DNA of 64,000 nucleotides from Bacteroidales bacterium (GCA_045616665.1 JAZLHE010000056.1:691-64690); one strand, 5' to 3'. Shown: positions 17,978 to 64,000, counted from the stretch's first letter. Numbers and translations: made by a program. The notes: a model not told the origin generated them from the sequence alone.

Positions 17978-18046
17978 TCAAAAAACATCAAGCTTCGACA
18001 AAGAAACAACAAAATTTCCGTCTTGGATTTCTTTGTCCGACAGGCA

Positions 18047-18913
18047 TTACAGCTTCAGCTGATCGAAATTCTTTCCAAACACGCCGTAAGTTTTAGAAAT
18101 ACTGATGAATGCCGTATCGTCAATATCCTTGATGATACGCGTGATGAGCACCTTGTCGGTTTTATGGGCGATAATGAGCAGAATTTCGCTTTCTTCTTTC
18201 GTATAGGAGCCATAACTTTTGATGAGGGTGGCACCACGGTGAAGGTCGTTGTTGATTTTATCGGCGATTTCGCGATTCTTTTTAGAAAATACCATAATCT
18301 GATAGCTCTGCCTATAACCGTCGATTACCACATCGGAAATCACGGTATAGACGAACATCACCACCATACTATACACCAGTTTTTCCACCGAATGGACGAT
18401 GAAGTAGGAAGACCCGACAATCAATATATTGGAATAAAAAGACACGCGACCATACGAGATATTCCGGTACTTTCCAATCATCAGGGCAATGATATCGGTT
18501 CCGCCCGTATTTCCTCCGAAATTGATGGCCATACCCACACCGAAAGCAGCGAGACCCGCACCAATCATTGAGCACATAAAGGCATCATCCACCAAAGGCT
18601 GCTTGAAAATGGCCTGCCCCACGGAAAGCAGAGAAGACAAAATCAACGTGCATATCATCGTATTGATGCAGAAGCGGCGACCGAGGACTTTCCATGCAAT
18701 GACGACCAAAACCAAGTTCAGCACGAAAGCGGTAACACCAACCGGAATAGTTTTGGTGGCAAAGTAAACGATAGCGGCGATACCACTCACACCGCCACCA
18801 GTAAGGGCGTTAGGAATAAGAAAAGCGGTCCATCCGAATGCGAAAATTGCCAAACCGATGGTAATAAATACGAAATTTTTAATCTCCTTGAGTAATTCTG
18901 AAGTGGTAATCAT
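18047..18913 (-). CDS. YitT-family membrane protein (DUF2179 C-terminal domain)
   Basis: 288 aa, polytopic. It carries GGGVSGIAAIVYF and GGNTGGTDIIALMIGKY, with a soluble C-terminal domain typical of YitT. Confidence 0.8.
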   Translation of the reverse strand: MITTSELLKEIKNFVFITIGLAIFAFGWTAFLIPNALTGGGVSGIAAIVYFATKTIPVGVTAFVLNLVLVVIAWKVLGRRFCINTMICTLILSSLLSVGQAIFKQPLVDDAFMCSMIGAGLAAFGVGMAINFGGNTGGTDIIALMIGKYRNISYGRVSFYSNILIVGSSYFIVHSVEKLVYSMVVMFVYTVISDVVIDGYRQSYQIMVFSKKNREIADKINNDLHRGATLIKSYGSYTKEESEILLIIAHKTDKVLITRIIKDIDDTAFISISKTYGVFGKNFDQLKL

Positions 18914-24188: not shown

Positions 24189-27110
24189 ATGAAAAAACTC
24201 AGATTATCGGCCATCGTATTTACGATGATTATGTTGTGTATCGGTTCTCTGTTCGCACAGAAATCATACACCTACAAAACTTTCCCTAACGATCCCCTTC
24301 AGGTTCGTGAATACACTTTGGACAACGGTTTGAAAGTGTATATGAGCGTTTACAAGGACGCCCCTAAAATCCAGACCTACATTGCCGTTCGCGCGGGAAG
24401 CAAAAACGACCCACACGAAACCACTGGTTTGGCCCACTATTTGGAACACATGATGTTCAAGGGCAGCGAACGCCTTGGCACTTCCGACTGGGAAAAGGAA
24501 AAAGTGCTGATTCAAAAAATTGAAGACCTTTTTGAGGCCTATCGTATGTTTGACGACCAAGCCACCCGCACGGCTATCTATCATAAAATCGACAGTCTTT
24601 CGTACGAGGCATCAAAGATTGCCATTGCCAACGAATACGACAAAGCAATGAGCTGTATCGGTTCGGAAGGAACCAACGCATTCACCAGCAACGACTTCAC
24701 GATGTATGTTGAAAACATTCCCAACAACCAGTTGGAAACCTGGTGCGACGTTGAAGCCGACCGTTTCCAACACTTGGTACTTCGTTTGTTCCACACCGAA
24801 TTGGAAACCATCTATGAAGAGAAAAACATGAGTTTGACCAAAGACGGCCGCCGCGTAAACGAACAAATGTTCGCAGCCCTGTTTCCTCATCATCCATATG
24901 GCACACAAACCACTTTGGGAGAACAGGAACACCTCAAAAATCCTTCTATGCGCAACATTCGCAACTTCGTAGCCACTTATTATGTGCCCAACAATATGTG
25001 TATCAGCTTGGCCGGTGATTTCAATCCCGACGAAGCCATTGCCATCATCGACAAATATTGGGGAAATATGAAGCCCGGCAATGTTCCTGTGTTCCAAAAA
25101 ATTCCAGAAAGTCCTATTACCACCCCTATCGTTAAGACTATCACTGGTTTAGATCCTGAAAACACCACTATTGCCTATCGTATTGACGCCGGTAACGGCA
25201 GTCACGAAGTGCTGCTGGCTTCCTTGCTCGAATCCGTATTGAATAACGGCAAATGCGGTTTGATTGACATCAACATCAACCAACAGCAAAAATGCTTGGG
25301 CGCCTACGCTGGATGCTACGCTTTGAATGACTATTCCGCATTCATGTTCGGCGGCAGTCCAAACCAAGGTCAGACTTTGGAACAACTCCAACAGCTTTTG
25401 TTTGAGCAAATCGCATTGGTTAAGAAAGGCGAATTTGACGAAAGCATTCTCGAAGCTGCCATCAACAATATGAAACTCAGCATTATGAAGATGGCGGAAA
25501 GTAATAACAGCCGTGCTTCTCAAATGGCCTACGCATTTGTGGAACACCAAGATTGGGGCGATGTTTGCAACGAACTTAACGAATTGGCGAAAATCTCTAA
25601 AAAAGACTTGGTTGACTTTGCCAATCAAATCTTCAAAGACAATAATTATGTAATTATCAACAAATTACAAGGCGAACCTGATCCTGTATTGAAGGTTTCC
25701 AAACCTGCCATCACTCCTATCGAAGTAAGCCGCGACAAAGAAAGCGCATTCTTGAAAGATATCAAGAACCGTCAGGTGACTCCTATCGAACCTGCATACG
25801 TGGATTTCAGCAAGGATTTGCAAAAAAGCAAGATGAATAACGGTGCCGAAATTCTTTATGTAAAGAATGTTGAAAACAAGACTTTCAACTTAAATTATTA
25901 CTTCGATTTCGGTTATCGTGCCGATAAGACCATCGATTTGGCTGCCGACTTGATGGATTACTTGGGAACTTCAAAACATACTCCCGAACAATTACAACTT
26001 GAATTCTACAAACTCGCCTGCAACTATTCTTTAAGTGTGGGCAACGAAAATATCGTGGTCAGCATCAGTGGTTTAAGCGAAAATATGGAAAAGGCCATGG
26101 CCTTGGTAGAAGAAATATTTGCTGACGTTCAACCCAATGAGGAAGCCCTTCAAATGCTTGTTTCAAGAATCATCAAGAGCCGTACCGACAACAAGCAAAA
26201 CCAACAACGTGCATTTAGCGCCTTGCGCAACTATGGCGTTTATGGCGAAGACAGCCCAACAAAGGACGTACTCAGCGAAAGCCAATTGAAAGCATACAAC
26301 AGCCAGCAGCTCTGCGATGCCATCAAGCAGTTATTCAACTACAAACACCGCATTCTATACTATGGTCCTGAAAGTATGGATAACTTGAAGGCCATCATCG
26401 CCCGCGACCACAAAATGCCGGCCAAATTTGCCAAAACTCCCGTAAACAAGAAATTGGTGCCTAACGCAGTAAACGAAAACACCATTTACTTCGTTGACTA
26501 CAACGCCAACCAAACCTATATGCAGGAATACCTCCGCGGTGACAAATTCGATGTCAAGATTCTGCCTCAATTGAACTTGTTCAACGAATATTTCGGTGGA
26601 TCTATGAACGCCATCGTATTCCAGGAAATGCGTGAAAAACGCTCTTTGGCCTACAGTGCTCAAAGTTATTATGTGACACCTAACCGCAAAGACGGCTATT
26701 TCACCAATGTGGCCATTATTGCCACTCAAAACGACAAACTGCTTGACGCTATGAACGCTTTCAACGACTTGTTTGAAAACATGCCTGTGGCTGAAGCCAA
26801 CTTCAAGCTGGCTCAAGACGCCGCAATAAGCAGCATCCGCACCGACCGCACCACGAAATTCTCCATCATCAACAGTTACCTCACTTACGAAAAAATGGGT
26901 TTCGATATGAAGAAAACCCGTGGCCAGATTTTATTTGAAACCTATCCTACATTGTCTATGCAGGATTTGGTGAACTTTAACCACAAATACCTCAAAGGAC
27001 AAAAGAAATTTTACCTGGTTTTAGGTCGCGAATCCGATATGGACTTCAACGCTTTGTCAAAATTTGGTAAAGTTAAAAAATTAACTTTGGAAGATATTTT
27101 CGGATACTAA
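24189..27110 (+). CDS. M16-family (pitrilysin/insulinase-like) zinc peptidase, secreted
   Basis: 973 aa. Signal peptide, inverted zinc motif HYLEHMMFKG (HxxEH), and a double-length M16 architecture. Confidence 0.9.
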   Translation: MKKLRLSAIVFTMIMLCIGSLFAQKSYTYKTFPNDPLQVREYTLDNGLKVYMSVYKDAPKIQTYIAVRAGSKNDPHETTGLAHYLEHMMFKGSERLGTSDWEKEKVLIQKIEDLFEAYRMFDDQATRTAIYHKIDSLSYEASKIAIANEYDKAMSCIGSEGTNAFTSNDFTMYVENIPNNQLETWCDVEADRFQHLVLRLFHTELETIYEEKNMSLTKDGRRVNEQMFAALFPHHPYGTQTTLGEQEHLKNPSMRNIRNFVATYYVPNNMCISLAGDFNPDEAIAIIDKYWGNMKPGNVPVFQKIPESPITTPIVKTITGLDPENTTIAYRIDAGNGSHEVLLASLLESVLNNGKCGLIDININQQQKCLGAYAGCYALNDYSAFMFGGSPNQGQTLEQLQQLLFEQIALVKKGEFDESILEAAINNMKLSIMKMAESNNSRASQMAYAFVEHQDWGDVCNELNELAKISKKDLVDFANQIFKDNNYVIINKLQGEPDPVLKVSKPAITPIEVSRDKESAFLKDIKNRQVTPIEPAYVDFSKDLQKSKMNNGAEILYVKNVENKTFNLNYYFDFGYRADKTIDLAADLMDYLGTSKHTPEQLQLEFYKLACNYSLSVGNENIVVSISGLSENMEKAMALVEEIFADVQPNEEALQMLVSRIIKSRTDNKQNQQRAFSALRNYGVYGEDSPTKDVLSESQLKAYNSQQLCDAIKQLFNYKHRILYYGPESMDNLKAIIARDHKMPAKFAKTPVNKKLVPNAVNENTIYFVDYNANQTYMQEYLRGDKFDVKILPQLNLFNEYFGGSMNAIVFQEMREKRSLAYSAQSYYVTPNRKDGYFTNVAIIATQNDKLLDAMNAFNDLFENMPVAEANFKLAQDAAISSIRTDRTTKFSIINSYLTYEKMGFDMKKTRGQILFETYPTLSMQDLVNFNHKYLKGQKKFYLVLGRESDMDFNALSKFGKVKKLTLEDIFGY

Positions 27111-29325: not shown

Positions 29326-30759
29326 ATGCTTTTTAACTCATTCTCCTTCGGATTCTTCCTTGTGACAGTCTATCTACTGTACTGGTTGGCCTTTAATCGC
29401 AACATAAAGTTGCGCAATTTGTTCATTTTGGTGGCCAGCTATTTTTTCTATGGCTTCTGGAATTGGAAACTACTGATATTGATTATCATCGTTTCTGCCA
29501 CCGATTTCCTCTTCGGCAATTTGATATACAAAGAGGAAAGCGAAAAACGGAGAAAACTGTATTTGACACTCGCGTTAGTCATTAATTTGGGCATACTCGG
29601 ATTTTTCAAATACTGCAATTTCTTTGTTGATAGTTTTTATTCGCTGCTTCACCTTTTCGGTGCATCTGGGACGTTCACGCCTTTCAACATCATTTTGCCC
29701 GTGGGCATCAGTTTTTACACATTCCAAGGATTGAGTAATGTATTAGATATTTACTATAGGAAGTTTGAACCGACCAAAGACCCGATTGCCTTTTGCGCAT
29801 TTTTGGCCTTTTTTCCACAGCTCATTGCCGGACCTATCGAGCGTGCGCGTGATTTGCTGCCTCAATTCTTCACTCCAAAGAAATTCAATTACGACGATGC
29901 CAGAAAGGGATTATTCCTGATTGCTGTCGGTCTTTTCAAGAAAATCATCATTGCGGACAGATTAGCGATATACGTTGACTCTGTGTATGGAAACGTGTCA
30001 GAAGTGCACGGCTTGCCAGCATTGGTTGCCGTATTATTCTTTGCATTCCAACTTTATTTGGATTTTTCAGCCTATTCGCAAATCGCCATTGGTACGGCGC
30101 GGATTTTCGGTTTCAAACTAAGCACTAACTTCAACAAGCCCTATTTGGCCACTTCTTTCAAGGACTTTTGGTCTCGTTGGCATATCACGCTCACCAGCTG
30201 GTTCCGCGACTATCTGTATTTCCCATTAGGAGGAAACAGGAGAGGTAAATTCAGAACTTATCTCAATGTGATTATCATTTTCACGGTAAGCGGACTATGG
30301 CATGGCGCATCCTGGAATTTCGTTATTTGGGGATTCTTGAACGGTATCTTCCTTGCTGTTTTCGACAAGGCATTTCATTTGAAACCGACTAAGATGTTGT
30401 CAAAGATCATTTGTTGTCTTTTCGTCACAGCGGCTTGGGCCTTATCTTTGATATTTTTCCGTGCAGGCACCTTTAGCGAGGCTATGACAATGTTTGGAAA
30501 TCTGGGCTTCGGAAATTCAGCCGATTTGCTCGCACACGGAATGGATGCCGTAGAACTCAAGTTCACATTCTGGCTGTTGGCAGGTTTGATGTTGATAGAA
30601 CTAATCTTGAAAAACAAACAGGAAAAAATAGAGAACTTTTTCTTCAATAAATTTTTCATGTTCCGATGGGCCATCTACCTCATCATTATTTTGGTTACCA
30701 TCTATTTGGGTGTATATGGGATCGGCAGCGACAATTCTTTTATTTATTTCCAATTCTAA
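29326..30759 (+). CDS. MBOAT-family membrane O-acyltransferase (AlgI/DltB-like)
   Basis: 477 aa, polytopic. Conserved-His region VSGLWHGASWNFVIWG. Typical MBOAT N-terminus MLFNSFSF..FL. Confidence 0.9.
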   Translation: MLFNSFSFGFFLVTVYLLYWLAFNRNIKLRNLFILVASYFFYGFWNWKLLILIIIVSATDFLFGNLIYKEESEKRRKLYLTLALVINLGILGFFKYCNFFVDSFYSLLHLFGASGTFTPFNIILPVGISFYTFQGLSNVLDIYYRKFEPTKDPIAFCAFLAFFPQLIAGPIERARDLLPQFFTPKKFNYDDARKGLFLIAVGLFKKIIIADRLAIYVDSVYGNVSEVHGLPALVAVLFFAFQLYLDFSAYSQIAIGTARIFGFKLSTNFNKPYLATSFKDFWSRWHITLTSWFRDYLYFPLGGNRRGKFRTYLNVIIIFTVSGLWHGASWNFVIWGFLNGIFLAVFDKAFHLKPTKMLSKIICCLFVTAAWALSLIFFRAGTFSEAMTMFGNLGFGNSADLLAHGMDAVELKFTFWLLAGLMLIELILKNKQEKIENFFFNKFFMFRWAIYLIIILVTIYLGVYGIGSDNSFIYFQF

Positions 30760-32567: not shown

Positions 32568-32630
32568 CCGCCAACTCGGTGAACAAAATTTGGCCAACTA
32601 GGTGAACGAGATCTGGCCGACTAGGTGAAC
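32568..32630 (+). repeat. Three direct repeats of GCC(A/G)ACT(A/C)GGTGAAC with 23-bp period
   Basis: ccgccaactcggtgaac (32568-84), tggccaactaggtgaac (32591-607), tggccgactaggtgaac (32614-30). They end about 50 nt upstream of the -7 box at 32680-32687. Confidence 0.8.
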
Positions 32631-32711
32631 GAAACAAAGAAAAATAGCGGATTTATTTACGTATATCATTTATTTTTAGTATTTTTGCGCCCGAATTACA
32701 AATCTAAACAA

Positions 32712-33992
32712 ATGGAAGATTATAGAGTACGAATTGCAGACCAATTACTATCTGAAAGTTTAGAGGCATTGGGGGCCGTCATTGTGCAGGGGACGAAGTG
32801 GTGTGGCAAGACCACCACGTCTGTTCATCATGCCGGAAGTGTTCTCTATATGGATGATCCGACGCAAAAGGAGCAGAATCTTTCGCTGGCGCAGACCAAC
32901 ATAAAGCGTTTGTTGGAAGGTGCCACTCCACGAGTGATTGACGAGTGGGAGTTAGCGCCCCAACTGTGGGATGCTGCACGTTTTGAGATTGACCATCGGC
33001 AAGTGCATATCGGACAATTTATTTTTACGGGTTCAGCCGTTCCAAAGGAGAAAGACAGGAAACGGATTTTTCACAGCGGCGCCGGTCGCTTCGACTGGAT
33101 CACAATGCGCACCATGTCACTTTGGGAATCAGGAGACAGCACCGGTGACGTCAGTCTCCAAGCATTATTCAATGGAGCGATGCCTGATGGTGCTGCCACA
33201 ATAGATTTGGACAGATTAGCATATCTTACTTGCCGTGGCGGATGGCCGGGAACACTTTCATTATCTGAGCGAGCCGCACTGCATGTTCCGCATGCCTACC
33301 TGAAAGCAGTGCTCAATTCGGATATATCCAAGGTGGATGATGTTAGACGCGATGCCAATACGATGTCGCGCATCATCCGAAGTCTGGCCCGTAACCAAGG
33401 CGAACAGATTCCTTACACCACTATTCGTGCAGACATAATCAACAATGAAAACACAACCATCAGCACAGACACGGTGGAGGACTATGTAAAGGTGCTGAAC
33501 AAGATATTTTTAGAAGAGGACATGCGGGCTTGGAATCCCAATTTGCGTAGCAAAACGGCCATACGGACCACTGACACTCGCTATTTTGTTGATCCCAGTA
33601 TCGCCACATCGGCATTGGGAATCGGACCAAAGGATTTGTTGAATAATTTGGCTGACTTTGGCTTCTACTTTGAAACCTTGGCTGTTCGCGATTTGCGTGT
33701 TTATGCCGACGCCTTGGATGGGGAGGTCTTCCACTTTCGCGACAAAAACGGCTTGGAGTGTGACGCTGTCCTCCATCGTCGCAATGGGGCATACGGACTT
33801 ATTGAAATCAAATTGGGAGGCGCAGATAATATAGAAAAAGGTGCAATCACCCTTAAAACATTATCCGCCAAGATTGACACTGAAAAGATGAACGCGCCAT
33901 CGTTTATGATGGTACTGACAGGAATAGGCCAATATGCCTATCGCCGTCTGGATGGTGTGTATGTCGTGCCCATCGGCTGCTTGAAACCGTGA
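32712..33992 (+). CDS. AAA-type ATP-binding protein (AAA_14/DUF4143-like)
   Basis: Walker A GTKWCGKTTT. The C-terminal half is typical of DUF4143 ATPases. A tatttttg box at 32680-32687 lies inside the GTG-started track ORF, so ATG 32712 (MEDYRVR..) is preferred. Confidence 0.75.
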   Translation: MEDYRVRIADQLLSESLEALGAVIVQGTKWCGKTTTSVHHAGSVLYMDDPTQKEQNLSLAQTNIKRLLEGATPRVIDEWELAPQLWDAARFEIDHRQVHIGQFIFTGSAVPKEKDRKRIFHSGAGRFDWITMRTMSLWESGDSTGDVSLQALFNGAMPDGAATIDLDRLAYLTCRGGWPGTLSLSERAALHVPHAYLKAVLNSDISKVDDVRRDANTMSRIIRSLARNQGEQIPYTTIRADIINNENTTISTDTVEDYVKVLNKIFLEEDMRAWNPNLRSKTAIRTTDTRYFVDPSIATSALGIGPKDLLNNLADFGFYFETLAVRDLRVYADALDGEVFHFRDKNGLECDAVLHRRNGAYGLIEIKLGGADNIEKGAITLKTLSAKIDTEKMNAPSFMMVLTGIGQYAYRRLDGVYVVPIGCLKP

Positions 33993-34008
33993 ACAGAAAC
34001 CGGAACAT

Positions 34009-34958
34009 CTAATTGCCTGATTTCCGTTCCATATAGTCTCTGAAGGCGTAAAGCGGGATGTTCTCCAACCACGGCTGGTCTTCGTAGTTTTTCATGCTCA
34101 GCCGGATGCCTTTGAGGTCGGGGTTGTTCTCTATGAAGATCTTTAATGATTTCGCCCTGACATTCTCTTCGGCTTTCACCTCCACGGGATACACATTGTC
34201 GTCGAGCTGAATCACGAAGTCGAGTTCTATGCGCGACTTCTCCACGGAATGATAATATACGGGGATGCCGGTGGTGGCGAGTTGCGACTCCACATATACT
34301 TCGGTGAAAGCCCCTTTATACTCCTTGAAGATGTTGTTGCCGACCATCATCTGGCTTGCGGGGATGTCGGCCATTGCGCCCATCAGCCCGACATCGAGGA
34401 TGAAGAGTTTGAAGGCGTTGGCATCTTCATAGAACTTCAGCGGCATCCTGACTGCGTTCACGCAGTTGATTTTATATACGATTCCCGCATCGACAAGCCA
34501 TTGGATTGACTCCTCGAATTCGGAGGCTCTGGCTCCGTGCTTCATAACACCGAAAATGAACTTCTTGTTCTCCTTGGTCAGCTGCGATACGAGGCTCTGC
34601 CACATGCCGCAATGTGATATTCGGGCGCATCTTCGGCCAAGGCCTTCAGCCTTGTCAGCGCAACGGGGCAGTCTTGTATTTCGTCTAAAATAACGAGAGT
34701 GTTGCCGGGGACTATGTCAACATCGGTTATGGCCGATAGACCTTTCAGTAACCTGTCCGCGGACTTCTCCGCCGTAAAAAGCTGACATGCGGCATCGTTT
34801 CGGTCGAAGCTGACAAAGGATATGCTTTTATATTCGTTTTTCCCGAATTCCTTCAGCAGCCATGTCTTGCCAACCTGCCGCGCTCCGAACAGCACTAACG
34901 GTTTCCTGTCTTTAGAAAGTTTCCATTTTATTAAGTCGTTGTATAAATATCGCCTCAT
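34009..34958 (-). pseudogene. Disrupted AAA/DUF4143-type ATPase gene (frameshift plus internal deletion)
   Basis: The 126-aa ORF carries the N-terminal AAA part (GARQVGKTWLL, VILDEIQ, ..HIAACG). The 198-aa ORF carries the C-terminal DUF4143-like part (SQLTKENKKFIFG..). The two are in different frames and overlap at 34578-34605. The combined length is roughly 100 aa short of the intact relative at 32712. Confidence 0.7.
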
Positions 34959-35192: not shown

Positions 35193-35306
35193 AACTCAAA
35201 AAAAACTACTTCCATTTCTCGGCTGTGGAATTTTTATGTATTTTTGCGCCTTGTTTTTGCCTTCAATCGGCAAAAAGTGAAATCACGGATTATTAACCAA
35301 TTTGGA

Positions 35307-36347
35307 ATGAAAGAAAAAAACAACATAGTACAAAGCACGATCGATGCATCTTTTCTTGCTGAAGTGAAGCACATTGTTGAGCAAGGTCGCCAACAAGCAT
35401 ACGCCTCCGTAAGTCAGCTGATGATTGAAACCTATTGGAAAATAGGAGAACGTATTGTTTTGCAAGAGCAAAAAGGATCTAATCGTGCCGAATATGGAAC
35501 TCAACTTATTGCTCAACTTTCAGAGGAGTTGACGCGAACATACGGAAAAGGATTCAGTGGAAGATATTTGAGAGCATTTAGACAGTTTTATCTTGTTGTT
35601 CCTGATTTGGAGATTTGGAAATCGCGATTTCCAAATCTTACTTGGACCCATATTCTTAAAACTTTACGAGTTGAGGATCCTACAGCTGTACGTTGGTATC
35701 TGTCAACAGCTTCACAAGAGATGTGGAGCGTGCGCACACTCGACCGCAATATTTCCACGCAATACTATGAGCGTCATTTTAAGCAACCGCAGTTGGTTGA
35801 AAATACCGAGAATGACAATAAGGTTGACAAATTGGAAATTCTAAAAAACCCAATAATGGCAGAATTTCTTGGATTCAAGCAAAATACCGACTTTACGGAA
35901 ACCGATTTGGAAAAAGGCCTGATTCAGCATCTTCAAGACTTTCTTGTTGAATTAGGCAGGGGATTTGCATTTGTTGCACGGCAACAGCATATTTTCACCG
36001 ATGCCGGTGACTTTTATATCGATTTGGTATTCTACAACTACATCTTGAAATGTTTCGTGCTGATAGATTTGAAAAAAGGTCAGATAACCCATCAGGATGT
36101 TGGGCAAATGGATATGTATGTGCGTATGTACGACGATTTGAAACGCACGGAAGGCGACAACCCCACCATAGGTATAGTACTTTGCAGCGAAACGAGCAAA
36201 GACATTGCACGCTATTCCATATTACGGGATAGCGATAATTTATTTGCCGCTAAATATATGCCCCTAATGCCTACCGAAGAAGAACTTCGCAGGGAGATAG
36301 AGGCTCAAAAAGAATTGTTTAATTTGCAAAATGACAAAATAGAATAA
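35307..36347 (+). CDS. DUF1016/YhcG-family PD-(D/E)XK nuclease-like protein, copy 1
   Basis: The N-terminal region ..AYASVSQLMIETYWKIGERIV..GSNRAEYGTQLI.QLS..L....GKGFS..YLRAFRQFY is typical of YhcG. The C-terminal core is FYIDLVFYNYILKCFVLIDLKKGQITHQDVGQM. A -7 box lies at 35239-35246. Confidence 0.8.
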   Translation: MKEKNNIVQSTIDASFLAEVKHIVEQGRQQAYASVSQLMIETYWKIGERIVLQEQKGSNRAEYGTQLIAQLSEELTRTYGKGFSGRYLRAFRQFYLVVPDLEIWKSRFPNLTWTHILKTLRVEDPTAVRWYLSTASQEMWSVRTLDRNISTQYYERHFKQPQLVENTENDNKVDKLEILKNPIMAEFLGFKQNTDFTETDLEKGLIQHLQDFLVELGRGFAFVARQQHIFTDAGDFYIDLVFYNYILKCFVLIDLKKGQITHQDVGQMDMYVRMYDDLKRTEGDNPTIGIVLCSETSKDIARYSILRDSDNLFAAKYMPLMPTEEELRREIEAQKELFNLQNDKIE

Positions 36348-36375
36348 AAAAGATATTTTAAACTAACATATTATC

Positions 36376-36399
36376 AATCATAGCGTTTGCTATTTGTTC
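36376..36399 (+). repeat. 24-bp direct repeat, copy A (aatcatagcgtttgctatttgttc)
   Basis: Identical 24-mer at 37616-37639. This copy ends 6 nt before ATG 36406. Confidence 0.9.
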
Positions 36400-36405
36400 T
36401 AAATC

Positions 36406-37509
36406 ATGAAAGAAAAAAAGACAGATATTGTTCAAGACGAGATTGGTCGTGCGGATATGCTTGCATCTCGCATTGAGGCACTGATTACGGAAGCACGTAC
36501 CAAAGTCGTTTCGTTTGTGAATACCGCTATGGTATATACCTATTATGAGATAGGACGGTATATCGTTGAAGATGAACAAAATGGAGACAACCGAGCTTCT
36601 TACGGCAAAGAAGTGTTGGAGAATTTGTCGTGCAGACTCACAGATAAATTTGGCAAAGGTTGGTCTGCTGCCAATCTCAGGGCTATGCGTCAATTTTATG
36701 CGGTGTATTCAAAAACGCTAACCACTGGTCAGCAAATTGGCAATGAAAACGCTAACCGTTGGTCAGCAAAATTGACTGATCAAAATATAACACCTGAGTT
36801 TAAATTGTCGTGGACTCATTATCAAATTTTAATGAGAGTTGAAAATCCACAAGCTCGAAGTTTTTATGAAATAGAATGTTATAACCAACATTGGGACAAG
36901 CGTTATCTGCAACGGCAAATTGGCAGCAGTTTGTACGAGCGTTTGGCATTAAGCCGGAACAAAAATGAAATAATCCGTTTGGCCAAAGAAGGTCAAACCA
37001 TAGAGAAACCGTCTGACGTAATAAAAGACCCGATTGTATTGGAATTTATGGGTCTTAAATCCGATGCTTCTTATTCCGAGACATCACTTGAAAGCGCGAT
37101 AATCGGCAAACTGCAACATTTTTTGTTAGAAATGGGCAAAGGATTCCTGTTTGAGGCACGACAGAAAAGATTTTCGTTTGAAGAACGCAATTTTTATGTC
37201 GATTTGGTACTGTACAACAGGCTTTTGCAATGCTATGTGCTGATAGATTTGAAAATGGACGACCTGACGCATCAGGATTTGGGACAGATGCAGATGTATG
37301 TGAACTACTACGACCGGTATGTGAAACAAGATTTCGAGAAGCCGACAATCGGCATTTTGCTGTGTGAACAAAAAGACGATATGCTGGTTGAATTAACATT
37401 GCCAAAAGACGCTAACATTTATGCGCAGCAATATGCACTCTATCTGCCAGACAAAGATCTCCTGCAAAAAAAATTACGGGAATGGATTGATGAGCAAAAC
37501 GAAAATTAA
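36406..37509 (+). CDS. DUF1016/YhcG-family PD-(D/E)XK nuclease-like protein, copy 2
   Basis: Same architecture as copy 1 but strongly diverged: FYVDLVLYNRLLQCYVLIDLKMDDLTHQDLGQM. Confidence 0.8.
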   Translation: MKEKKTDIVQDEIGRADMLASRIEALITEARTKVVSFVNTAMVYTYYEIGRYIVEDEQNGDNRASYGKEVLENLSCRLTDKFGKGWSAANLRAMRQFYAVYSKTLTTGQQIGNENANRWSAKLTDQNITPEFKLSWTHYQILMRVENPQARSFYEIECYNQHWDKRYLQRQIGSSLYERLALSRNKNEIIRLAKEGQTIEKPSDVIKDPIVLEFMGLKSDASYSETSLESAIIGKLQHFLLEMGKGFLFEARQKRFSFEERNFYVDLVLYNRLLQCYVLIDLKMDDLTHQDLGQMQMYVNYYDRYVKQDFEKPTIGILLCEQKDDMLVELTLPKDANIYAQQYALYLPDKDLLQKKLREWIDEQNEN

Positions 37510-37615
37510 CCATCTTTGCAGTCACAAATCAGATACTGCGATTCTTATTAAATCATTAAACAACAAACAATTAACAAAAACAGAAAGATAAACATTCAAC
37601 TGATATATTATAATA

Positions 37616-37639
37616 AATCATAGCGTTTGCTATTTGTTC
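37616..37639 (+). repeat. 24-bp direct repeat, copy B
   Basis: Perfect match to 36376-36399. It lies 176 nt upstream of the methyltransferase ATG. Confidence 0.9.
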
Positions 37640-37815
37640 GAGAAACTCTGAAACGTAGGAAATTTCAAAAGTTGATACCGAGGACAGATTGCGAATGTTC
37701 ACGCTTACGTGGGCATTCTTGTCTGTATCAATCGGTTTCCTACGACCGCAGAGTTTGGGCAAGATTAGCCCACGTTCTGTGTTCGTAGGGAACAAGTGCC
37801 AGACGCTAAAAGCAA

Positions 37816-38919
37816 ATGCGTATGGCAAACAAGAATTTATCGCAGGCAAAAGCGAAAAAAAACGATGAGTTTTATACTCAGTATGCGGACATTCAAAATG
37901 AAATAAACGCCTATTTGGAATATAATCCGGATGTGTTTCGAGACAAAACTATCCTTCTTCCGTGTGACGATCCCGAATGGTCAAACTTTACAAAATTCTT
38001 TGCACAGAATTTTGAAAATTTCGGCTTGAAAAAGCTGATTAGCACAAGTTATGCTATAGAAAGCAAAAACATAGACCTGAACTGGCAGCCAACTTTGTTT
38101 GAACAGGAAAATCCCAACTTTGATTTGGATAAGACCAAAATCAAAGGTAAGATTTTCACGCTTGAACGTGACACCAATGCCAGTGGAAAGATTGACATTG
38201 AAGATTTGGAATGGCAATACTTAGAAGGCGACGGCGACTTCCGCAGTGATGAAGTAAAGGCCTTGCGAGACGAAGCCGACATAATCATCACCAATCCACC
38301 GTTTTCGTTGTTTACATCTTTTTTGATGTGGATTATGGAAGCAGATAAAAAGTTTCTGATTTTAGGTAATATGAATGCTATTGCCTACAAAGAAATTTTT
38401 CCAAAGATTAAGGAGAATAAAATGTGGCTGGGTGTAAAAAGCGGTGCCAGAGAATATTTGAAACCCAATGGTGGTATCCAAAAAATGGGCAACACCTATT
38501 GGTTTACAAATCTTGAGCATGGGCGTCGTCATCAACCTATGAAACTGATGACATTGGATGATAATATCAAGTACAGCAAGCACAAAGAAGTAAAAAATGT
38601 TGGTTATAAAAGGTATGTGAATTTTGATGCTATTGAGATTCCCAAATCTGATGCTATACCGAGTGATTACAATGGTGTGATGGGTGTCCCTATTTCTTGG
38701 CTGGACAAATATTGTCCAGAACAATTTGAGATTATTGGAATGGCCAATGGTGGAAATCTTGGCATAGAATGCGGCGTTAGTTCAAATTTATCCGAAGAAG
38801 ATTGTAAAAAGCTATTTAAAGAGGATAAAGGTTTTAGACGAGGAAAATTGTGCTATAGAAATGATGATGGAAAGTTAATCAGCCTTTTCGCAAAAATATT
38901 AATCCGTAAAAAACAATAA
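37816..38919 (+). CDS. EcoRI-family N6-adenine DNA methyltransferase
   Basis: The N-terminal signature [21 protein letters not shown]....[19 protein letters not shown] resembles the EcoRI_methylase family. Catalytic motif IV is IIITNPPFS. Confidence 0.8.
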
Positions 38920-38920
38920 A

Positions 38921-40078
38921 ATGAAAACGACATTAAAAGAGTACACAATTCAGGAAGTTTGTGAAGGTTTCTTATACAACGAATTAGAAGGCAAAGGTTT
39001 GTTCGGCTTGGGTGGTCAATTGACAATCCAGCCCGAATACCAAAGAAACTACATTTACAATGATGGCAAAAAGGACGTGGCCGTTATAGAATCCGTGCTG
39101 AAAGGTTATCCACTGGGGCTCATCTATTTCAACAAAGTAGATGACAGGCTTGAAGTGCTGGACGGGCAACAACGCATCACTTCCTTGGGTCGGTTTGTCA
39201 CCGGAAAGTTTGCCATTAAAGACGCCAACGGAATGGAACAGTACTTTTCAAGTTTGGCATCGGACAAACAACAACTTATCAACAACTCAAAACTGTTGGT
39301 TTATATTTGTGAAGGAACCGAAACAGAAATAAAAGAGTGGTTCAAGATCATCAATATTGCCGGTGTTCCATTGAAACCGCAAGAGCTGTTGAACGCGGTA
39401 TATTCCGGGCCGTTTGTAACCAAAGCAAAAGAAGTGTTTAGCAATTCACAAAACGCAAACATCCAGAAATGGAGTGCATTCATCAAAGGTGTTGCCAACC
39501 GCCAAGACTTTTTGGAATGCGCCTTGGATTGGGTGAGCAAAGGAAATATTGAAAATTATATGGCCACCCATCGTTCGGATACGGACATCAATGAAATGGA
39601 AACCTATTTCAATAGCGTGATTGGTTGGATTGACAGTGTGTTTCCAACAGTTAAAAAAGAGATGTGCGGTTTGGAGTGGGGTCGTCTGTATGAAACGTAT
39701 CATAAAAATCCGTACAATAAAATTAAAGTCGGTTCAGAAGTTGACCGATTATATGCAGACGAATATGTTGCCAACAAAAAAGGAATATTTGAATATGTTT
39801 TGGGCGGCTGCGCTGATGATAGGTTGTTGGAAATTCGTGTTTTTGACAATGCAACAAAGAATACCGTATATCATAAACAGACAACCGATGCCATTGCGAA
39901 AGGCATATCCAACTGCCCGTTGTGTGCTATGGGTACGAATGCTAACAGAACAAGAATCTGGAAGTTGAATGAAATGGATGCCGATCACGTCACTGCTTGG
40001 AGCAAAGGTGGCAGCACCTCCATCGGAAATTGTGAAATGCTTTGCCAAACGCACAACCGAGCCAAAGGAAATAAATAA
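38921..40078 (+). CDS. DUF262 (ParB-like, DGQQR) domain protein with C-terminal HNH nuclease
   Basis: QPEYQRNY and [13 protein letters not shown] are DUF262 hallmarks. The C-terminus CPLC....[33 protein letters not shown] is an HNH motif. The start is 1 nt after the methyltransferase stop. Confidence 0.8.
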
Positions 40079-40849: not shown

Positions 40850-41595
40850 TTAATACAGCAAACCGAACATCCAAAGAGGAATGCGATGACCATGACCAAG
40901 TTCAGCACCTGCCACCGCCAAATAGCTGTCAGGAAGGTCTTTAATCTGCTCAGAACTTTTGCTTCCGCCTCCGACTTCAAACAGATATTTGCCGTCAACA
41001 AGAAAGTCTCCTTTTGGAGGATAATGCACTTTGGCCACTGCGGAAAGTTGGTTTAAGAAAAATGTCTCACGCAAGGTGCCCACATTCGCCATCGGTGAAA
41101 GTGCATACATCAAGTTGGTGTTACCCACATAAAGTTTGTCGGGTTTGGACATCCGCTTTAAGGATTTGCTTTCAGAACTCAGCAACGCCATCAAACCTGC
41201 TCGTTCAAGCAGGTCCAACATTTTTAATCCTTGATCCCTTGATGTGTTCAATTGGGCATATACTTCGTTCATTTTGGGTGTTTGAGGCACTTTGTCAGCC
41301 AAAATCATCAACATTTGTTTGATTTTTTGAATTGTAGCGTATGAAACATCTTCAATACTTGGCAAATCAGACTCCAATACCTGTTTAATCATACTTTGTA
41401 ACCTATCTGGGAATCCATCTCCTTCCTCAGAGAAAAAGGGATAATAGCCAAATCGGAGATATGACTCGAAAAGAGGAAGAACTTTTATCGAGGATGATAT
41501 ATCAAGTGCTATGGTCAAATGTTTTTCCAACAAATTAGGAAGAGATATTTTTCCCAGTTTGTAATGACAGCTGAACGCCAAGAATTCCCTGAATA
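40850..41595 (-). pseudogene. 5'-truncated AAA-family ATPase gene remnant
   Basis: Only a C-terminal portion is plausible (..FGYYPFF....LESDLP....KPDKLYVGNTNLMYAL...FFLNQL....HRIPLWMFGLLY*). No Walker A is present. The N-terminal ~45 aa of the track ORF overlap the exonuclease gene and look like read-through. Confidence 0.55.
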
Positions 41596-41600
41596 GATTC

Positions 41601-42098
41601 CTATTCCAAAATCCGCAACGCGATGGCGGCACATGCCTCGGCATCCGCCAACGCGTGATGATGATGCTCCAGATTATAGCCGCAAGCCGCGGAAACAGTA
41701 TGTAACTGCAGGTTCTCCAAGGTTTTGCCAAAATGCCTTTTGGCCGCTCTATAGGTACAATAAAACTTATAATCAGGATAATCCATTTGATATAACTTAA
41801 AAACCGCCTTCAAACAGCTCTCATCAAACTGGCTGTTGTGTGCCACCATCGGCAATCCCTCAATTTTTGGAGCTACCCGCGCCCATACTTTCGGGAAAAT
41901 CGGGGCATCGTCGGTATCTTCATTCGACAAGCCGTGTACCCGCTGACAATAATAATTATAAAAATTAGGCTCAGGTTTGATCAAACTATAAAAACTGTCC
42001 ACCACCACGCCGTCACGCACTACCACTACGCCCACACTGCACACACTACTCGGTGCGAAATTGGCAGTCTCAAAATCAATGGCAGCAAAATCCTTCAT
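41601..42098 (-). CDS. DEDDh 3'-5' exonuclease (DnaQ/epsilon-like), stand-alone
   Basis: 165 aa. Exo I AIDFETAN, Exo II VAHNSQFDESCL, Exo III HHALADAEACA. A minus-strand tatttttg box lies at about 42160-42180. Confidence 0.88.
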   Translation of the reverse strand: MKDFAAIDFETANFAPSSVCSVGVVVVRDGVVVDSFYSLIKPEPNFYNYYCQRVHGLSNEDTDDAPIFPKVWARVAPKIEGLPMVAHNSQFDESCLKAVFKLYQMDYPDYKFYCTYRAAKRHFGKTLENLQLHTVSAACGYNLEHHHHALADAEACAAIALRILE

Positions 42099-59530: not shown

Positions 59531-60961
59531 ATGAAAAAAAACAGCTCTATATTCATCGTTTTTCTGATTCTTCTGACTTCATTTTCAGCCAAATCACAAG
59601 AAATTGACAGCGTCACGGCGAAAAATGTGGCAAAAAATTTCTATCGAACACTCCCAAAAGCAACCACACGCGGTTTTCAAGCCTCTATTGCCTATCAATC
59701 TGAAATCATAAGTTCACAAAAAGGCAGCAGCGTTGGATTTTACATCATCAATTTGGGTGACGAAGGTTTTGTCATCGTCAGTGGGGACCAAAAAGTGCAA
59801 CCCATTTTAGGATTTTCCACGGAAGGAGCATTTCATTCAGAGAACATACCCGAGAATCTGCATTTTTTACTACGGGAATACGACAAAGAAATTCAAGCCA
59901 TCATAGAAAGTCCAGCAACCGACTCACATTGTTTTGACCAAAAATGGGCATCATTAACGCAGTCCAGGTCAAAAATTAGGGCAACAGGCACCGTGGTTGT
60001 CGGGCCATTGGTAACATCAAAATGGACACAGGGAAAATATTACAACAACCATTGTCCCGTAGATGCCAGTGCGCCAGCAGCGGCGGGAGGCCACGCATTG
60101 GTAGGTTGCGGTGCCATTGTGATGGGGCAGGTCATGCGCTATTGGCACTATCCTATCACGGGTAGCGGCACCCATTCGTACAACAGCGGCAGTTACGGCA
60201 CCCTTTCCGCCGATTTCGGCAACACCATCTACGACTATGACAATATGCCTGTACGACTCTTGAATTCCTCAACTAATGAGCAAGTCGAGGCAGTTTCAAC
60301 TTTGCTGTATCACTGTGGTGTGGCCGTGAATATGAATTACGGACCTTCGGCCAGCTGGTCCAATTCCAACAACATCGTGGCGGCCATGTCCAACTATTTC
60401 AGCTATCCCGCCACGATTGAATACATTGAGCGAAGTTCTACCAATGCCACCACCTGGCTTGAACTTATCAAGGGTGAATTGGACGATTTTGCCCCCTTCT
60501 TTTATGGCGGAACGGGCAGTCAAGGCGGCCACGTCTTTGTATGTGACGGCTACCGTGACGACAACTTCGTGCACATCAACTGGGGCCTGGGCTCCTACGA
60601 CGGCTATTTTGCCGTTACCGCACTCAATCCCGGACCATACAATTTCAGTTCTTCACAAGCCATCATCATTGGCATTCGCGGACCGGAACCGCCGGTCAGT
60701 ATTACCGACAACAAGACTGGCAACATCACCATTTATCCCAATCCCACATCTGACCTTCTGCGTATTGAAACCACGGGAAAACTCAATGGCGCCAATCTTT
60801 CCCTTTACGACATCAACGGCCGACTTCTGCTTTCAGACAAAATCAATATGGATGGGCAAAATTCTTATTCCATTCACTTGAAACATCTATCAAAAGGAAT
60901 GTATTTTTTATCAATTGATAATGAAAACAATCATTTTTGGGAAAAAGTAATCGTAGAATAA
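59531..60961 (+). CDS. C10-family (streptopain-like) cysteine peptidase with T9SS C-terminal sorting domain
   Basis: Signal peptide and an N-terminal inhibitor-like propeptide. Catalytic Cys context GCGAIVMGQVMRYW and catalytic His context GGHVFVCDGY. The C-terminus ITIYPNPTSDLLRIE...GMYFLSI matches the T9SS sorting domain. Confidence 0.85.
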   Translation: MKKNSSIFIVFLILLTSFSAKSQEIDSVTAKNVAKNFYRTLPKATTRGFQASIAYQSEIISSQKGSSVGFYIINLGDEGFVIVSGDQKVQPILGFSTEGAFHSENIPENLHFLLREYDKEIQAIIESPATDSHCFDQKWASLTQSRSKIRATGTVVVGPLVTSKWTQGKYYNNHCPVDASAPAAAGGHALVGCGAIVMGQVMRYWHYPITGSGTHSYNSGSYGTLSADFGNTIYDYDNMPVRLLNSSTNEQVEAVSTLLYHCGVAVNMNYGPSASWSNSNNIVAAMSNYFSYPATIEYIERSSTNATTWLELIKGELDDFAPFFYGGTGSQGGHVFVCDGYRDDNFVHINWGLGSYDGYFAVTALNPGPYNFSSSQAIIIGIRGPEPPVSITDNKTGNITIYPNPTSDLLRIETTGKLNGANLSLYDINGRLLLSDKINMDGQNSYSIHLKHLSKGMYFLSIDNENNHFWEKVIVE

Positions 60962-61062: not shown

Positions 61063-61839
61063 TTATTTTACAGATATGATAATCGGGTTTTCAGGATCTG
61101 ACGGGTTGTGTAAGGTAACGTATTCGCTATTTTCTTCCAGAATGGCTTGCCTCATTATCAATAGGTTGCGACCCACCTGCACACAATCTTCCCCTATCAG
61201 TTCCTTTATTTCCTTCAAGGTCGTTAGGGTCGTGTATTCGCCATCTCGGGTGAAATAATGCGTGTAGTTCCTGTCTTGTCTGCAATAGAGCAATTGGGGT
61301 ATTTCTATAAAACAGTCTTCCTTCTGATTGTCCTTTACTCTAAGCAGATGTAGCTGGTTCGCAGAGGCCGCTTTCATATTCTTTTCCTCACTAACCGCCT
61401 TTTCATATAGTCCGAAAAGTATGTAGATGGCCAGTGTCGCGATGTTCCTCATAAAGATGGCCGCAATGTCTTGTACAAACAGTCCCGTTTGAAAGGGAAC
61501 TGGAACTTTTGCATAAAAGTATTTGTCCAGGTACGGCTTCAGAAAGCCGACTTCACAACAACTCCACACGAGGGCGGTGACGATAGCCATAACGACATAC
61601 TGGGTATATTTTCTCTGTAATAGGAACTTTGGTATAAGAAAACAATAGTGCAGGTAAAGAAACAACAGCACAAACGCCGCACACGCATACTCCAGATAGG
61701 CCGGGTGAGGTATTAGCGGACGCATCACCGACATGTGGGTGAACACGTAGGCAAAGCCCACGCAAAAAATCAAATGAAAAGCCCAATTTCTTCCGAAACG
61801 ATGTGAAAACAGGGTGCTTTTCGTCCAGTTTTCGTCCAT
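61063..61839 (-). CDS. Membrane-associated LytTR-domain DNA-binding protein
   Basis: Four to five hydrophobic helices, then a LytTR-like C-terminus (FIEIPQLLYCRQDRNYTHYFTRDGEYTTLTTLKEIKELIG). I prefer ATG 61839 because a minus-strand tacatttg box (61868-61875) lies inside the longer track ORF. Confidence 0.75.
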   Translation of the reverse strand: MDENWTKSTLFSHRFGRNWAFHLIFCVGFAYVFTHMSVMRPLIPHPAYLEYACAAFVLLFLYLHYCFLIPKFLLQRKYTQYVVMAIVTALVWSCCEVGFLKPYLDKYFYAKVPVPFQTGLFVQDIAAIFMRNIATLAIYILFGLYEKAVSEEKNMKAASANQLHLLRVKDNQKEDCFIEIPQLLYCRQDRNYTHYFTRDGEYTTLTTLKEIKELIGEDCVQVGRNLLIMRQAILEENSEYVTLHNPSDPENPIIISVK

Positions 61840-61990
61840 AATCCGTTTATAATCATTTTTTTCAAGGCAAATGTATGAAAAAAAACAAGGTGAAACGACA
61901 AAAATTTTCGGTCTCGTAAAACATTGACACATTGTTCGTTAGGACGAAAACTGGACGAAAAGTTGACGAAAACTGGACGAACTTTGACGA
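61817..61990. promoter_or_regulatory. 21-bp perfect inverted repeat flanking a 104-bp promoter-bearing segment, plus 11-bp phased T(G/T)GACGAAAA repeats
   Basis: 61817-61837 is the exact reverse complement of 61942-61962 (ggacgaaaactggacgaaaag). The motif recurs at 61942, 61953, 61964, 61975 and 61986 on the plus strand, and twice on the minus strand at 61838-61817. Confidence 0.6.
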
Positions 61991-62068
61991 TTTTTCTCAT
62001 ACAACGCGGTGACTTTTTTGTTTTATTTGTAAATTTGTAAGAAAAAAATCAAACCAAACTTTTGTTTT

Positions 62069-62203
62069 ATGAAAAAAATCAGCTTTGCATTTGTGTTGGC
62101 ATTTTTGTTGCTTTGTCTCTGTCGGTGTGCCAAGCCGGTGGAACACGTCCATTCCAACAATCAGGGAATTTACTCCGGCAGCCAATATTACAGAAACAAT
62201 TAA
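62069..62203 (+). CDS. Possible 44-aa small secreted/lipoprotein-like peptide (below the ORF-track cutoff)
   Basis: MKKISFAFVLAFLLLCLCRCAKPVEHVHSNNQGIYSGSQYYRNN*. The N-terminus is signal-peptide-like. There is no other support. Confidence 0.25.
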   Translation: MKKISFAFVLAFLLLCLCRCAKPVEHVHSNNQGIYSGSQYYRNN

Positions 62204-62486
62204 CAGCGGAAATATGAACCGATTGCTTTATTTGCTGGGAAAGAACAACTTCATTAATGATGTTCCCGTTGCGTGTGTGCCGGCAACGGGAACGAAAAAG
62301 CCGACAAGGCTAAAGGCGATGCGCGACACTGCGACCAGGGTAAAAAAAATGTTTTCTCCCGCCGCACTAGTGAGTGCTGTGCATAAAACACATTAAAAAA
62401 ACCTGTAGATGCACCTGGCTTGATTTCAGTAATACAATAAATAAAACCTATTGTTGTTCTTGTAATTGTTTAAATCAATAAATTCC

Positions 62487-64000
62487 ATGAAACAGTTTTT
62501 TGTCATCATTTTGCTGTGTAATATAGTTTATACTTCGTTTTCAAAAATTATTGAAGGAGGTGCTTATTATTCAACCACAAAAGAAATCACTTTTGATCTA
62601 GACCATTCAGATTACATGCGAGATTGGTATATTTCAACAGAAGATGATCCTAATGTCCTTTATCTATATTGTGAAAATCCGATAGAACTGACATTCCATC
62701 TTCCCTCTCAAGATTTGAATTTTCTGGTTTCAAATCTAGACACCATCCGTTTGGTGTTTATTATCAATGACAAAGATTCTATCAATACGTTGATTATTGG
62801 TGTACACGATATTCCCAACAACATTAGTGAGGACGAAAAACTGTTTCATTTAAGCCGCCTATGGAGTGAGGTGAAATATAATTTTGTCAATATTGACCAA
62901 ATTGATTTTGATTGGGACAGTCTGTATAAAGCCTATATTCCTTTGGTAAAGAACACGAGCAACGATTATGATTTTTATCGGATTTTACAGCGTTTTTACG
63001 CAACACTCCACGATGGCCACACTGAAGTCTATATGCCATATTCTCTAACGGCATACGAAGATTATGTTCCAGTAGCAATAGACTATTTCGACAAGCAGCT
63101 GTATATTACATCAACTATAGCCCAAGACTACGACTCCTCCTTTTTGGCTGCTAAAATACTTATGATTAACAATATTCCTATTCATCAATACTTACAAGAT
63201 AGCATTTCCCCTTATATATCTGCTTCCACAGAACAATCTCTTTGGACGCGGATTCCACAAGCCATTTGTTATGGATTGCGTTGCAAACCCTTGGTTTTTG
63301 AAATACAAAAACAAAATGGCGAAAAAGCCAGTATGAATTTGGTACGTAATGGTGAAGCTACAAGACGCGAGAACATTCAGCATTGCAGGTTAAGGGAAAA
63401 GACTTCTGAACCTTGGGATTTTGTTCAACTGTTTTGGCATCAGGATTCTATTCTTCAACTATCTATCAATTCATTCTACCCAGATGAATATGTAATATCG
63501 CTTATAGCTAAGAAGGAGAATGAAATACAAAAGGCAAAAGGGCTGATTATAGATTTGAGACAAAATGGTGGAGGATCCACTGTCGTCGCCCATTATTTAC
63601 AGTCTCACTTGACCCAAGCACCTTATTTTATCAATTTTGCATGGCAAAGCCGTATTAATGACGGGGTAAGAAAAGCCAATGGCAATTGGATCAAGGAATA
63701 CAAAGATTATTATTTAGAAAAGGCCTATCGAACAGAAGCTGGGGATACCATTGCTATAGCAGACTCTATACAGCGATGGTCCATGCCAACCGTAGTCCTT
63801 TTCGGCGAATACACATTCTCCGCGGCAGAAGATTTTTTGGTCAATCTGTACGAAACTCCCAATCGACCTTTATTTATTGGCAAAGAATCTGGAGGTTCAA
63901 CTGGGTCGCCACTGGTAATAAACGACCTTCCTTTAGACGGATACGCTAGATTATGTACTCGAAGAATCCTTTTTCCGTATAGTCAGACAGCATTTGTTGG
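62487..64000 (+). CDS. S41-family (tail-specific/C-terminal processing type) serine peptidase, 3' end off-window
   Basis: Absent from the ORF track because there is no in-window stop. ATG 62487 opens a frame that stays open to 64000. Signal-like N-terminus MKQFFVIILLCNIVYTSFS. S41 hallmarks GLIIDLRQNGGGS and TFSAAEDF. Confidence 0.8.
   Translation, partial: MKQFFVIILLCNIVYTSFSKIIEGGAYYSTTKEITFDLDHSDYMRDWYISTEDDPNVLYLYCENPIELTFHLPSQDLNFLVSNLDTIRLVFIINDKDSINTLIIGVHDIPNNISEDEKLFHLSRLWSEVKYNFVNIDQIDFDWDSLYKAYIPLVKNTSNDYDFYRILQRFYATLHDGHTEVYMPYSLTAYEDYVPVAIDYFDKQLYITSTIAQDYDSSFLAAKILMINNIPIHQYLQDSISPYISASTEQSLWTRIPQAICYGLRCKPLVFEIQKQNGEKASMNLVRNGEATRRENIQHCRLREKTSEPWDFVQLFWHQDSILQLSINSFYPDEYVISLIAKKENEIQKAKGLIIDLRQNGGGSTVVAHYLQSHLTQAPYFINFAWQSRINDGVRKANGNWIKEYKDYYLEKAYRTEAGDTIAIADSIQRWSMPTVVLFGEYTFSAAEDFLVNLYETPNRPLFIGKESGGSTGSPLVINDLPLDGYARLCTRRILFPYSQTAFV

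Follow-up and report, generated by a model that had tools for sequence, protein, structure and literature searches.

The inverted repeat at the start of a Bacteroidales LytTR regulator gene is probably the footprint of a bidirectional control region and not an invertible promoter

Introduction

LytTR regulators are known to autoactivate via direct repeats that lie just upstream of their own promoters and of those of peptide or bacteriocin operons (PMC6193735). The membrane-bound LytTR regulator CoxC binds three direct repeats at the promoter it controls (PMC11347149), while AlgR recognizes the 9-mer CCGTTCGTC, with an inverted third site as well as sites inside an open reading frame (ORF), for which looping has been proposed (PMC4064291). 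Here we describe a LytTR regulator gene and the DNA in front of it, both located in a 64,000-nucleotide stretch from a Bacteroidales bacterium (GCA_045616665.1 JAZLHE010000056.1:691-64690), the whole of which is referred to below as the window. The start of this gene is covered by one arm of a perfect 21-bp inverted repeat, which a preliminary description had read either as (a) an invertible promoter or as (b) an autoregulatory LytTR operator. Judging from comparisons with related sequences, we consider it probable that the repeat marks where a sequence-specific protein binds a control region serving both directions; the adjacent LytTR regulator is the most probable such protein.

The regulator of the window resembles CoxC in that an N-terminal multi-pass membrane part is fused to a C-terminal LytTR domain (PMC11347149). 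CoxC differs in carrying MHYT, in its 8-bp repeats with 12-13-bp spacers that overlap the -35 box, i.e., those of a repressor, and in its alphaproteobacterial host. The LytTR regulatory system of Zou et al. 2018 is a two-gene operon with a separate transmembrane inhibitor, whereas the window encodes a single 258-aa protein and falls outside that definition; no co-directional partner gene stands beside the LytTR gene, the conserved neighbour being a divergent gene for a secreted lipoprotein. A literature search found no description of this membrane-anchored LytTR family or of its operator format.

Results

The two arms of the repeat, at 61817-61837 and 61942-61962, are 100% complementary over 21 nt with 104 nt between them, and the A and T of the LytTR ATG (61839-61837) fall inside this 104-bp segment, in both respects as described previously. 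When up to three mismatches were allowed, the 21-mer arm was found at one locus only in the 64 kb, where none was expected (100 shuffles). The description of the arms as being made of 11-bp phased units, two on the left and five on the right, also held, with the fifth right-hand unit being degenerate. The core of each unit is GGACG/CGTCC, and zero-mismatch copies of TKGACGAAAA occur in the window solely at 61818 and 61829 on the minus strand and at 61952 and 61963 on the plus strand. On the right, GACG starts at 61943, 61954, 61965 and 61976, in exact 11-bp phase, and then at 61986, where the degenerate unit is offset by 10; on the left, the cores occupy 61822-61826 and 61833-61837. Phased runs of two or more cores were found nowhere else in the window, and runs of three or more in none of 200 shuffles. 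The lineage of the window shows, in addition, a 22-bp super-period, in that the 17-mer at 61943-61959 recurs unchanged at 61965-61981. Read on the plus strand, the array units point toward a promoter box at 62030, while the left-hand units cover the ATG and codons 1-8 (MDENWTKS) of the LytTR gene. A scan of Joint Genome Institute (JGI) metagenome contigs for the 20-mer arm returned six matches, all of them unrelated single chance matches that lacked a second unit. A 20-mer arm match in a Bacilli metagenome-assembled genome (MAG) was set aside, as it lies in a seemingly ordinary coding region and has no second arm.

Bacteroidetes promoters are of a type other than sigma-70. The minus-strand TAnnTTTG box reported at 61875-61868 (tacatttg) is present in the sequence, and a second perfect TAnnTTTG box, TAAATTTG, had been missed; the latter points toward the 44-aa ORF from a position 35 nt to the right of the array edge (57 nt away from the first core). 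From the -7 consensus, transcripts are predicted to start near 61862 on the minus strand and near 62042 on the plus strand. Relative to these predicted starts, the array occupies about -47 to -101 of the divergent promoter, a normal position for an activator, and about -79 to -133 of the LytTR promoter, while the LytTR transcript would carry the opposed pair of the ATG at about +25 to +45, its distance to the array being 109 bp or approximately 10.4 helical turns. As the plus-strand genes have a predicted promoter of their own at 62030, they need no inversion.

The sequence in front of the regulator gene was compared among orthologous lineages from many samples (L011-13, L014, L015-17, L020-23, L024, L025-26, L027-29 and L030), whose 258-aa proteins show 62-68% identity and all begin MD(E/K/G)(N/K). 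A common layout precedes the gene in every one of them. Four cores stand at 11-bp intervals and read CGTCC (rarely CATCC, TGTCC or CGTCA), and the last core is invariably C(G/A)TCC(T/C)AAC. Counted from this last core, the TAnnTTTG box lies at +70 to +72 nt in nine lineages and at +60 in L020, and a GGAC on the ATG, present in every homologue examined, lies at +108 to +110 (99 in L020), usually accompanied by a second unit 11 bp upstream. Most lineages have the divergent box 57-58 nt from the first core, and the L015/L030 clade has it at 68 nt. All of these departures in spacing amount to about one helical turn, and at least 10 lineages share the position of the phased units relative to both promoters.

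When seven regions were aligned (six from orthologous lineages, the seventh an old paralogous copy), identity reached 87% in the six 5-bp core blocks, a level matched by only one in 2000 random sets of six 5-column blocks, vs. 57% in the other intergenic columns. The paralogous copy lies at 16135-16172 in L011, adjoining genes for proteins secreted by the type IX secretion system (T9SS). Its LytTR stub is dead (MDGKQD*) and the LytTR-side -7 box is lost, and it retains the four cores, the two opposed units and the divergent box at 57 nt. The longest perfect inverted repeat measures 21 nt in the window, 18 in L015, 11 in L020, 10 in both L024 and the second L011 copy, and fewer than 10 in L011 and L014. 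In the operator reading, the perfection of the 21 bp is likely to reflect local homogenization of sites in the lineage of the window, and would make no recombination substrate.

Within the regulator itself, the LytTR domain occupies residues 176-237 (PF04397, 29.1 bits vs. a cut-off of 22.6), and the hydropathy profile predicts approximately four hydrophobic helices within residues 20-145. At E <=0.01, Pfam and NCBIfam returned LytTR only, with MHYT not being detected, and a sequence search of the PDB gave no match at E <=1. The PF04397 match recurs in all homologues. Word-index protein searches reached homologues no further than 59-68% identity, with P0025 as a query matching only itself, and P0018 was absent from the representative genomes searched. 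A profile search of 1.84 billion representatives yielded 158 clusters (50% identity) at E <=0.001, most of which match across both the membrane and the LytTR parts.

Two distant homologues were examined for the same layout. In the first, P0019 (35% identity), from a water-buffalo reticulum MAG (L031), cores are found at 2349, 2360, 2371 and 2382, followed by the box TATTTTTG at +70, by ATGGAC at +109 and by a further opposed unit, GGGACGAAA, at +131; the divergent gene encodes a lipoprotein homologue (159 aa), and its box, an imperfect one, is separated from the first core by 58 nt. In the second, P0025 (L032; 24% identity), the motif is retained, with an array of GGACGAAAA, TGTCGAAAA, GGACGAAAT and GGACGAAAA at 2394, 2405, 2416 and 2427, again in 11-bp phase, and the unit ATGGATCGAAAA on the ATG at 2501. 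Here the array is flipped, such that it forms direct repeats with the ATG unit; the LytTR box TACTTTTG (2482) is 54-55 nt away from it and the lipoprotein box (2308) 86 nt. Because the flip places the array near the LytTR box, the array and the promoter that it faces behave as one unit, whichever gene is concerned. On this sequence evidence, whether the repeat appears inverted or direct depends on which promoter the array faces. Four phased cores are kept in all homologues, including those of 35% and 24% identity.

Of the two earlier readings, these findings support that of the repeat as an autoregulatory LytTR operator. Conservation, spacing, gene linkage and precedent all favor it; that reading was too narrow, however, in that the array lies between two divergent promoters and faces the one that is not that of the LytTR gene. 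As for the protein that binds, we infer that it is the LytTR regulator because the linkage is invariable, because LytTR proteins habitually autoregulate (PMC6193735) and because TTCGTC is common to the unit and the AlgR site (PMC4064291). The operators might instead be real and be bound by another transcription factor encoded elsewhere, with the LytTR gene as a target. The spacing of 11 bp, which is atypical for LytTR domains (PMC11347149, PMC6193735), and the indirect assignment of the LytTR protein to the array leave room for such a factor. We nevertheless regard this as unlikely, given that the array, its motif unchanged, accompanies the LytTR family in all lineages, even at 24% identity, that the sole other invariably linked gene encodes a secreted lipoprotein, and that the unit has the TTCGTC of the AlgR site.

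According to the invertible-promoter reading, a recombinase encoded elsewhere would flip 61838-61941 between the 21-bp arms, turning LytTR off and sending a second promoter toward the plus-strand genes. A perfect 21-bp inverted repeat around a segment with one TAnnTTTG box is suggestive of such a switch, Bacteroidales use such switches widely (PMC8748976), and PhaseFinder recognizes them by the presence of both orientations in one population (PMC8748976). We therefore looked for the inverted segment in public sequence data, i.e., Logan contigs of 19 runs (15 of DNA or unknown type and four metatranscriptomes), which drop rare variants, and the very shallow raw-read run X21, which contributed four reads over 1.1 kb. 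No strand-change joint over the region was detected in the contigs of the 19 runs or in the four X21 reads. Contigs that crossed the flank, left arm, segment and right arm had the orientation of the window in X14 (61600-61966, at a depth of 99), X30 and X40 (61700-61973) and X13 (61787-62100), and the inverted form was seen in none of approximately 30 assembled contigs from approximately 10 lineages. Breaks in contigs near the arms were considered as possible branching due to inversion; the loose ends at 61787, 61973, 62077, 62168/9 and 62255 match alternative cassette junctions, and the breaks are thus explained by a multi-copy 469-bp module and by strain variants.

The alternative orientation was accordingly not found, and other features of the locus also oppose inversion. 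Orthologues keep the phased cores even where their perfect repeat has shrunk to 10 bp or less, and in L032 the ATG unit stands in direct orientation to the array. Flipping would cost the gene its start codon, as the left arm lies in coding sequence; the 30 large ORFs of the window yielded no recombinase domain; and 104 bp is short for a recombinase synapse. A tyrosine recombinase gene does adjoin the LytTR gene, a point in favor of inversion, in the L020-23/L028 lineages only. Overall, we hold an invertible promoter here to be extremely improbable, and a minority inverted form in populations to be unlikely.

The gene in question, a Phage_integrase gene convergent to the LytTR gene, was seen at 3828-4952 in L020, in L021-L023 and at 1600-2028 in L028. 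In the lineages that bear it, the orientation of the array is unchanged in all seven of seven contigs. The gene may mark the border of a mobile element.

The closest genome, a horse-faeces Bacteroidales MAG whose LytTR protein is 97% identical, carries four copies of the 469-bp module on a single contig (JAKSMG010000017.1), at 17911-18378, 22900-23335, 25701-26168 and 30121-30411. The first three are 100% identical to one another and the fourth 98%, and the internal orientation is the same in all four; the order of the copies rests on a short-read assembly of perfect 470-630-bp repeats. Copy 1 alone runs on into an intact LytTR gene. On their left, copies 2-4 join a 23-codon stub of a C39-peptidase ATP-binding cassette (ABC) transporter (MGKFSFYRQLDAMDCGPTCLRMI), the 3' tail of a SPASM maturase and a dead 34-codon LytTR stub. 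Each copy heads a different cassette, and the cassettes of this MAG include two S41 peptidases; a GG-leader peptide with an FGE-sulfatase-like protein; and a GG-leader peptide with a DUF6624 protein, an apparent fragmented ATP-grasp gene (three short consecutive ORFs) and a truncated grasp-with-spasm SPASM maturase (TIGR04193, 209 bits vs. a cut-off of 175). Copies 2-4 look like the outcome of repeated duplication of one junction followed by turnover of the cassettes. Alternative junctions of this kind exist in nature, as indicated by the corresponding loose ends that many independent public runs show at 61787, 62077 and 62255.

A multi-copy module of this kind, with copies that are 98-100% identical within one MAG and with junctions at several points, one of them inside the array (61973), raises the question of whether the repeats are a functionless by-product of slippage and gene conversion in a recently duplicated, recombination-prone module. 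Drift, however, would not preserve the cores, their phase and their distances, all of which are kept though the flanking intergenic sequence is approximately 57% identical and the proteins 24-35%; moreover, the sequences outside the cores at the distant loci speak against recent horizontal copies. An origin as a by-product is therefore, in our estimation, very improbable.

Variation was also seen at the edges of the module. In at least seven runs, contigs match the window as far as 61973, after the third array unit, and then read AACTTTTTTACCCCTTTCGAATGTTTTATC; in X40 this variant is contiguous with the LytTR coding flank, and some strains therefore carry a three-unit array joined to another divergent region. 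The stretch between the module and the S41 gene (62296-62437) is polymorphic in length, being approximately 300 nt longer in the MAG (18419-18857), and one public contig lacks 62398-62436.

Coordinates of the features are collected in Table 1. The 44-aa ORF aligns to residues 1-33 and 156-165 of the 165-aa L011 protein, whose family is marked by the motif IGHS..C.GCV...C.G.G..C. Public contigs contain 369 extra nt (123 codons) exactly at 62168/62169, at a depth similar to that of the short form and in the same samples. The S41 gene product matches Peptidase_S41 (8.5e-13) and Tricorn_C1 (6e-7) in Pfam.

Table 1. Features of the control region and its neighborhood (positions counted from the first nucleotide of the window).
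Feature	Position	Strand	Remarks
Gene for 258-aa membrane-anchored LytTR regulator	61063..61839	-	Pfam, hydropathy profile and orthologues
469-bp module	61787..62255	.	First 53 nt of the LytTR gene, both repeat sets, both promoter boxes and the small ORF
Two inverted 11-bp units	61818..61839	-	Left arm; GGACG at 61837-61833 and 61826-61822 (gene strand)
Bacteroidetes-type -7 box TACATTTG, predicted LytTR promoter	61868..61875	-	Sequence
Array of four phased 11-bp units and a degenerate fifth	61941..61995	+	Contains the right arm; sequence
Divergent -7 box TAAATTTG, predicted promoter of the lipoprotein remnant and downstream peptidase genes	62030..62037	+	Sequence
44-aa ORF	62069..62203	+	Conserved 159-165-aa Cys-rich lipoprotein with in-frame internal deletion
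S41-family peptidase gene, first large gene of the divergent operon	62487..64000 (runs off the window)	+	Pfam

Elsewhere in the window, a C10 (streptopain-like) peptidase gene with a Spi inhibitor pro-domain and a T9SS sorting tail (59531-60961) lies between the LytTR gene and a GH2 beta-galactosidase gene. In L018 and L019, whose LytTR protein (P0001) is 98% identical, the GH2 gene comes directly after the LytTR gene, which makes the presence of the C10 peptidase gene variable among strains; a shorter form without it would fit the loose ends that RNA runs show at 61052. An apparent defence island at 35244-40078 comprises two tandem YhcG/DUF1016 PDDEXK nuclease paralogues (367 aa each), an EcoRI-type adenine methyltransferase and a GmrSD-N/HNH endonuclease, with DUF4143/AAA_14 ATPase genes nearby (32625-34605 and 40850-41731). 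Finally, three tandem plus-strand ORFs of 388-391 aa at 14379-17912, which have no Pfam match at E <=0.001, may constitute a paralogous family.

Discussion

The control region that we consider probable would operate as follows. Two divergent Bacteroidetes-type promoters enclose four to five 11-bp sites (TTTTCGTCC / GGACGAAAA), which recur once per helical turn and hence share one face of the DNA. The membrane-anchored LytTR protein would oligomerize on this array and activate the promoter that the array faces, which would drive the lipoprotein remnant and the S41 peptidase here and GG-leader peptides, grasp-with-spasm maturases and S41 peptidases in relatives. The protein would also feed back on its own promoter, and the pair of sites on the ATG might either close a loop with the array or serve as an autorepressing roadblock that caps the positive feedback. 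The sites and their spacing are read directly from the DNA, while the sign of the regulation and any looping we infer.

Several observations weigh against this proposal. The canonical LytTR site consists of two 9-bp repeats, 10-13 bp apart (centers approximately 21 bp), a format that the 11-bp spacing does not match, and neighboring LytTR domains might clash at 11 bp, leaving only alternate units occupied; filling of alternate units is possible given the 22-bp super-period of the window lineage. A -33 element was not evident at either promoter. Metatranscriptome contigs (X25-X28) span the entire intergenic region, and these, being strandless and possibly DNA-containing, give neither the start nor the direction of a transcript. 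Lastly, the near-perfect identity of the copies in the MAG stems in part from recent duplication and not from selection.

More broadly, the chances seem to us about even that the locus represents a so far undescribed family of one-component LytTR regulators that are anchored in the membrane and belong to herbivore-gut Bacteroidales. Such a family would combine a fixed phased operator, i.e., four 11-bp sites with a promoter approximately 55 nt away in the direction in which they point and an extra site on the regulator start codon, with an operator-promoter module that, together with a regulator stub, has been copied ahead of GG-leader peptide, grasp-with-spasm, S41, FGE-sulfatase-like and T9SS cassettes. 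If so, copying of the module would draw new genes into a single peptide-linked regulon, and at the ATG site DNA binding would be coupled with the regulator's first codons (MD...). The locus, moreover, links this LytTR family to loci resembling those for ribosomally synthesized and post-translationally modified peptides (RiPPs) in Bacteroidales, where peptide-responsive regulation is poorly known.

The analysis also removes a false candidate from the list of phase-variable switches, the idea of a switch having been largely explained away, and it exposes a trap for repeat-based prediction of invertons, as opposed operator sites around a promoter mimic an inverton exactly. In its place stands a testable operator, with a defined motif, exact spacings and two promoters, for an uncharacterized family of membrane-bound LytTR proteins. 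Should the LytTR domain bind, the 11-bp spacing and the start-codon site would extend the known formats of LytTR binding.

Compared with known systems, the locus is like the invertons of Bacteroidales in having short inverted repeats around a TAnnTTTG promoter and in the presence of the same module at several loci of one genome. It is unlike them in that only a single orientation was seen, related loci do not preserve the repeat as such, coding sequence makes up one arm and no invertase was found nearby. AlgR at algD/algC of Pseudomonas aeruginosa offers a closer parallel at the level of the site, since CCGTTCGTC and the unit TTTTCGTCC of the window have TTCGTC in common, and since AlgR sites likewise include one in the opposite orientation as well as sites downstream of the transcript start and inside an ORF, with looping proposed (PMC4064291). 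AlgR, however, is a response regulator, and its sites are isolated and hundreds of bp apart, not phased in tandem.

The remaining comparison is with the HdrR/BrsR LytTR systems of S. mutans and with AgrA, ComE and PlnC-type regulons. These use two 9-mers with a 12-bp spacer, whereas the units of the window recur every 11 bp in sets of four to five, and the window locus differs further in the opposed pair added at its start codon. In the window protein the membrane part is fused to the regulator and not encoded by a separate inhibitor gene; the protein has no receiver domain; and its host belongs to the Bacteroidales, with -7/-33 promoters. As in these systems, in which control is membrane-dependent (PMC6193735), the regulator of the window has a membrane segment, predicted in this case from hydropathy. 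As in all of these systems, a LytTR protein adjoins direct repeats upstream of its own promoter, and the same repeats are found ahead of exported-peptide operons, represented here by GG-leader peptides, the C39 ABC-transporter stub and RiPP maturases.

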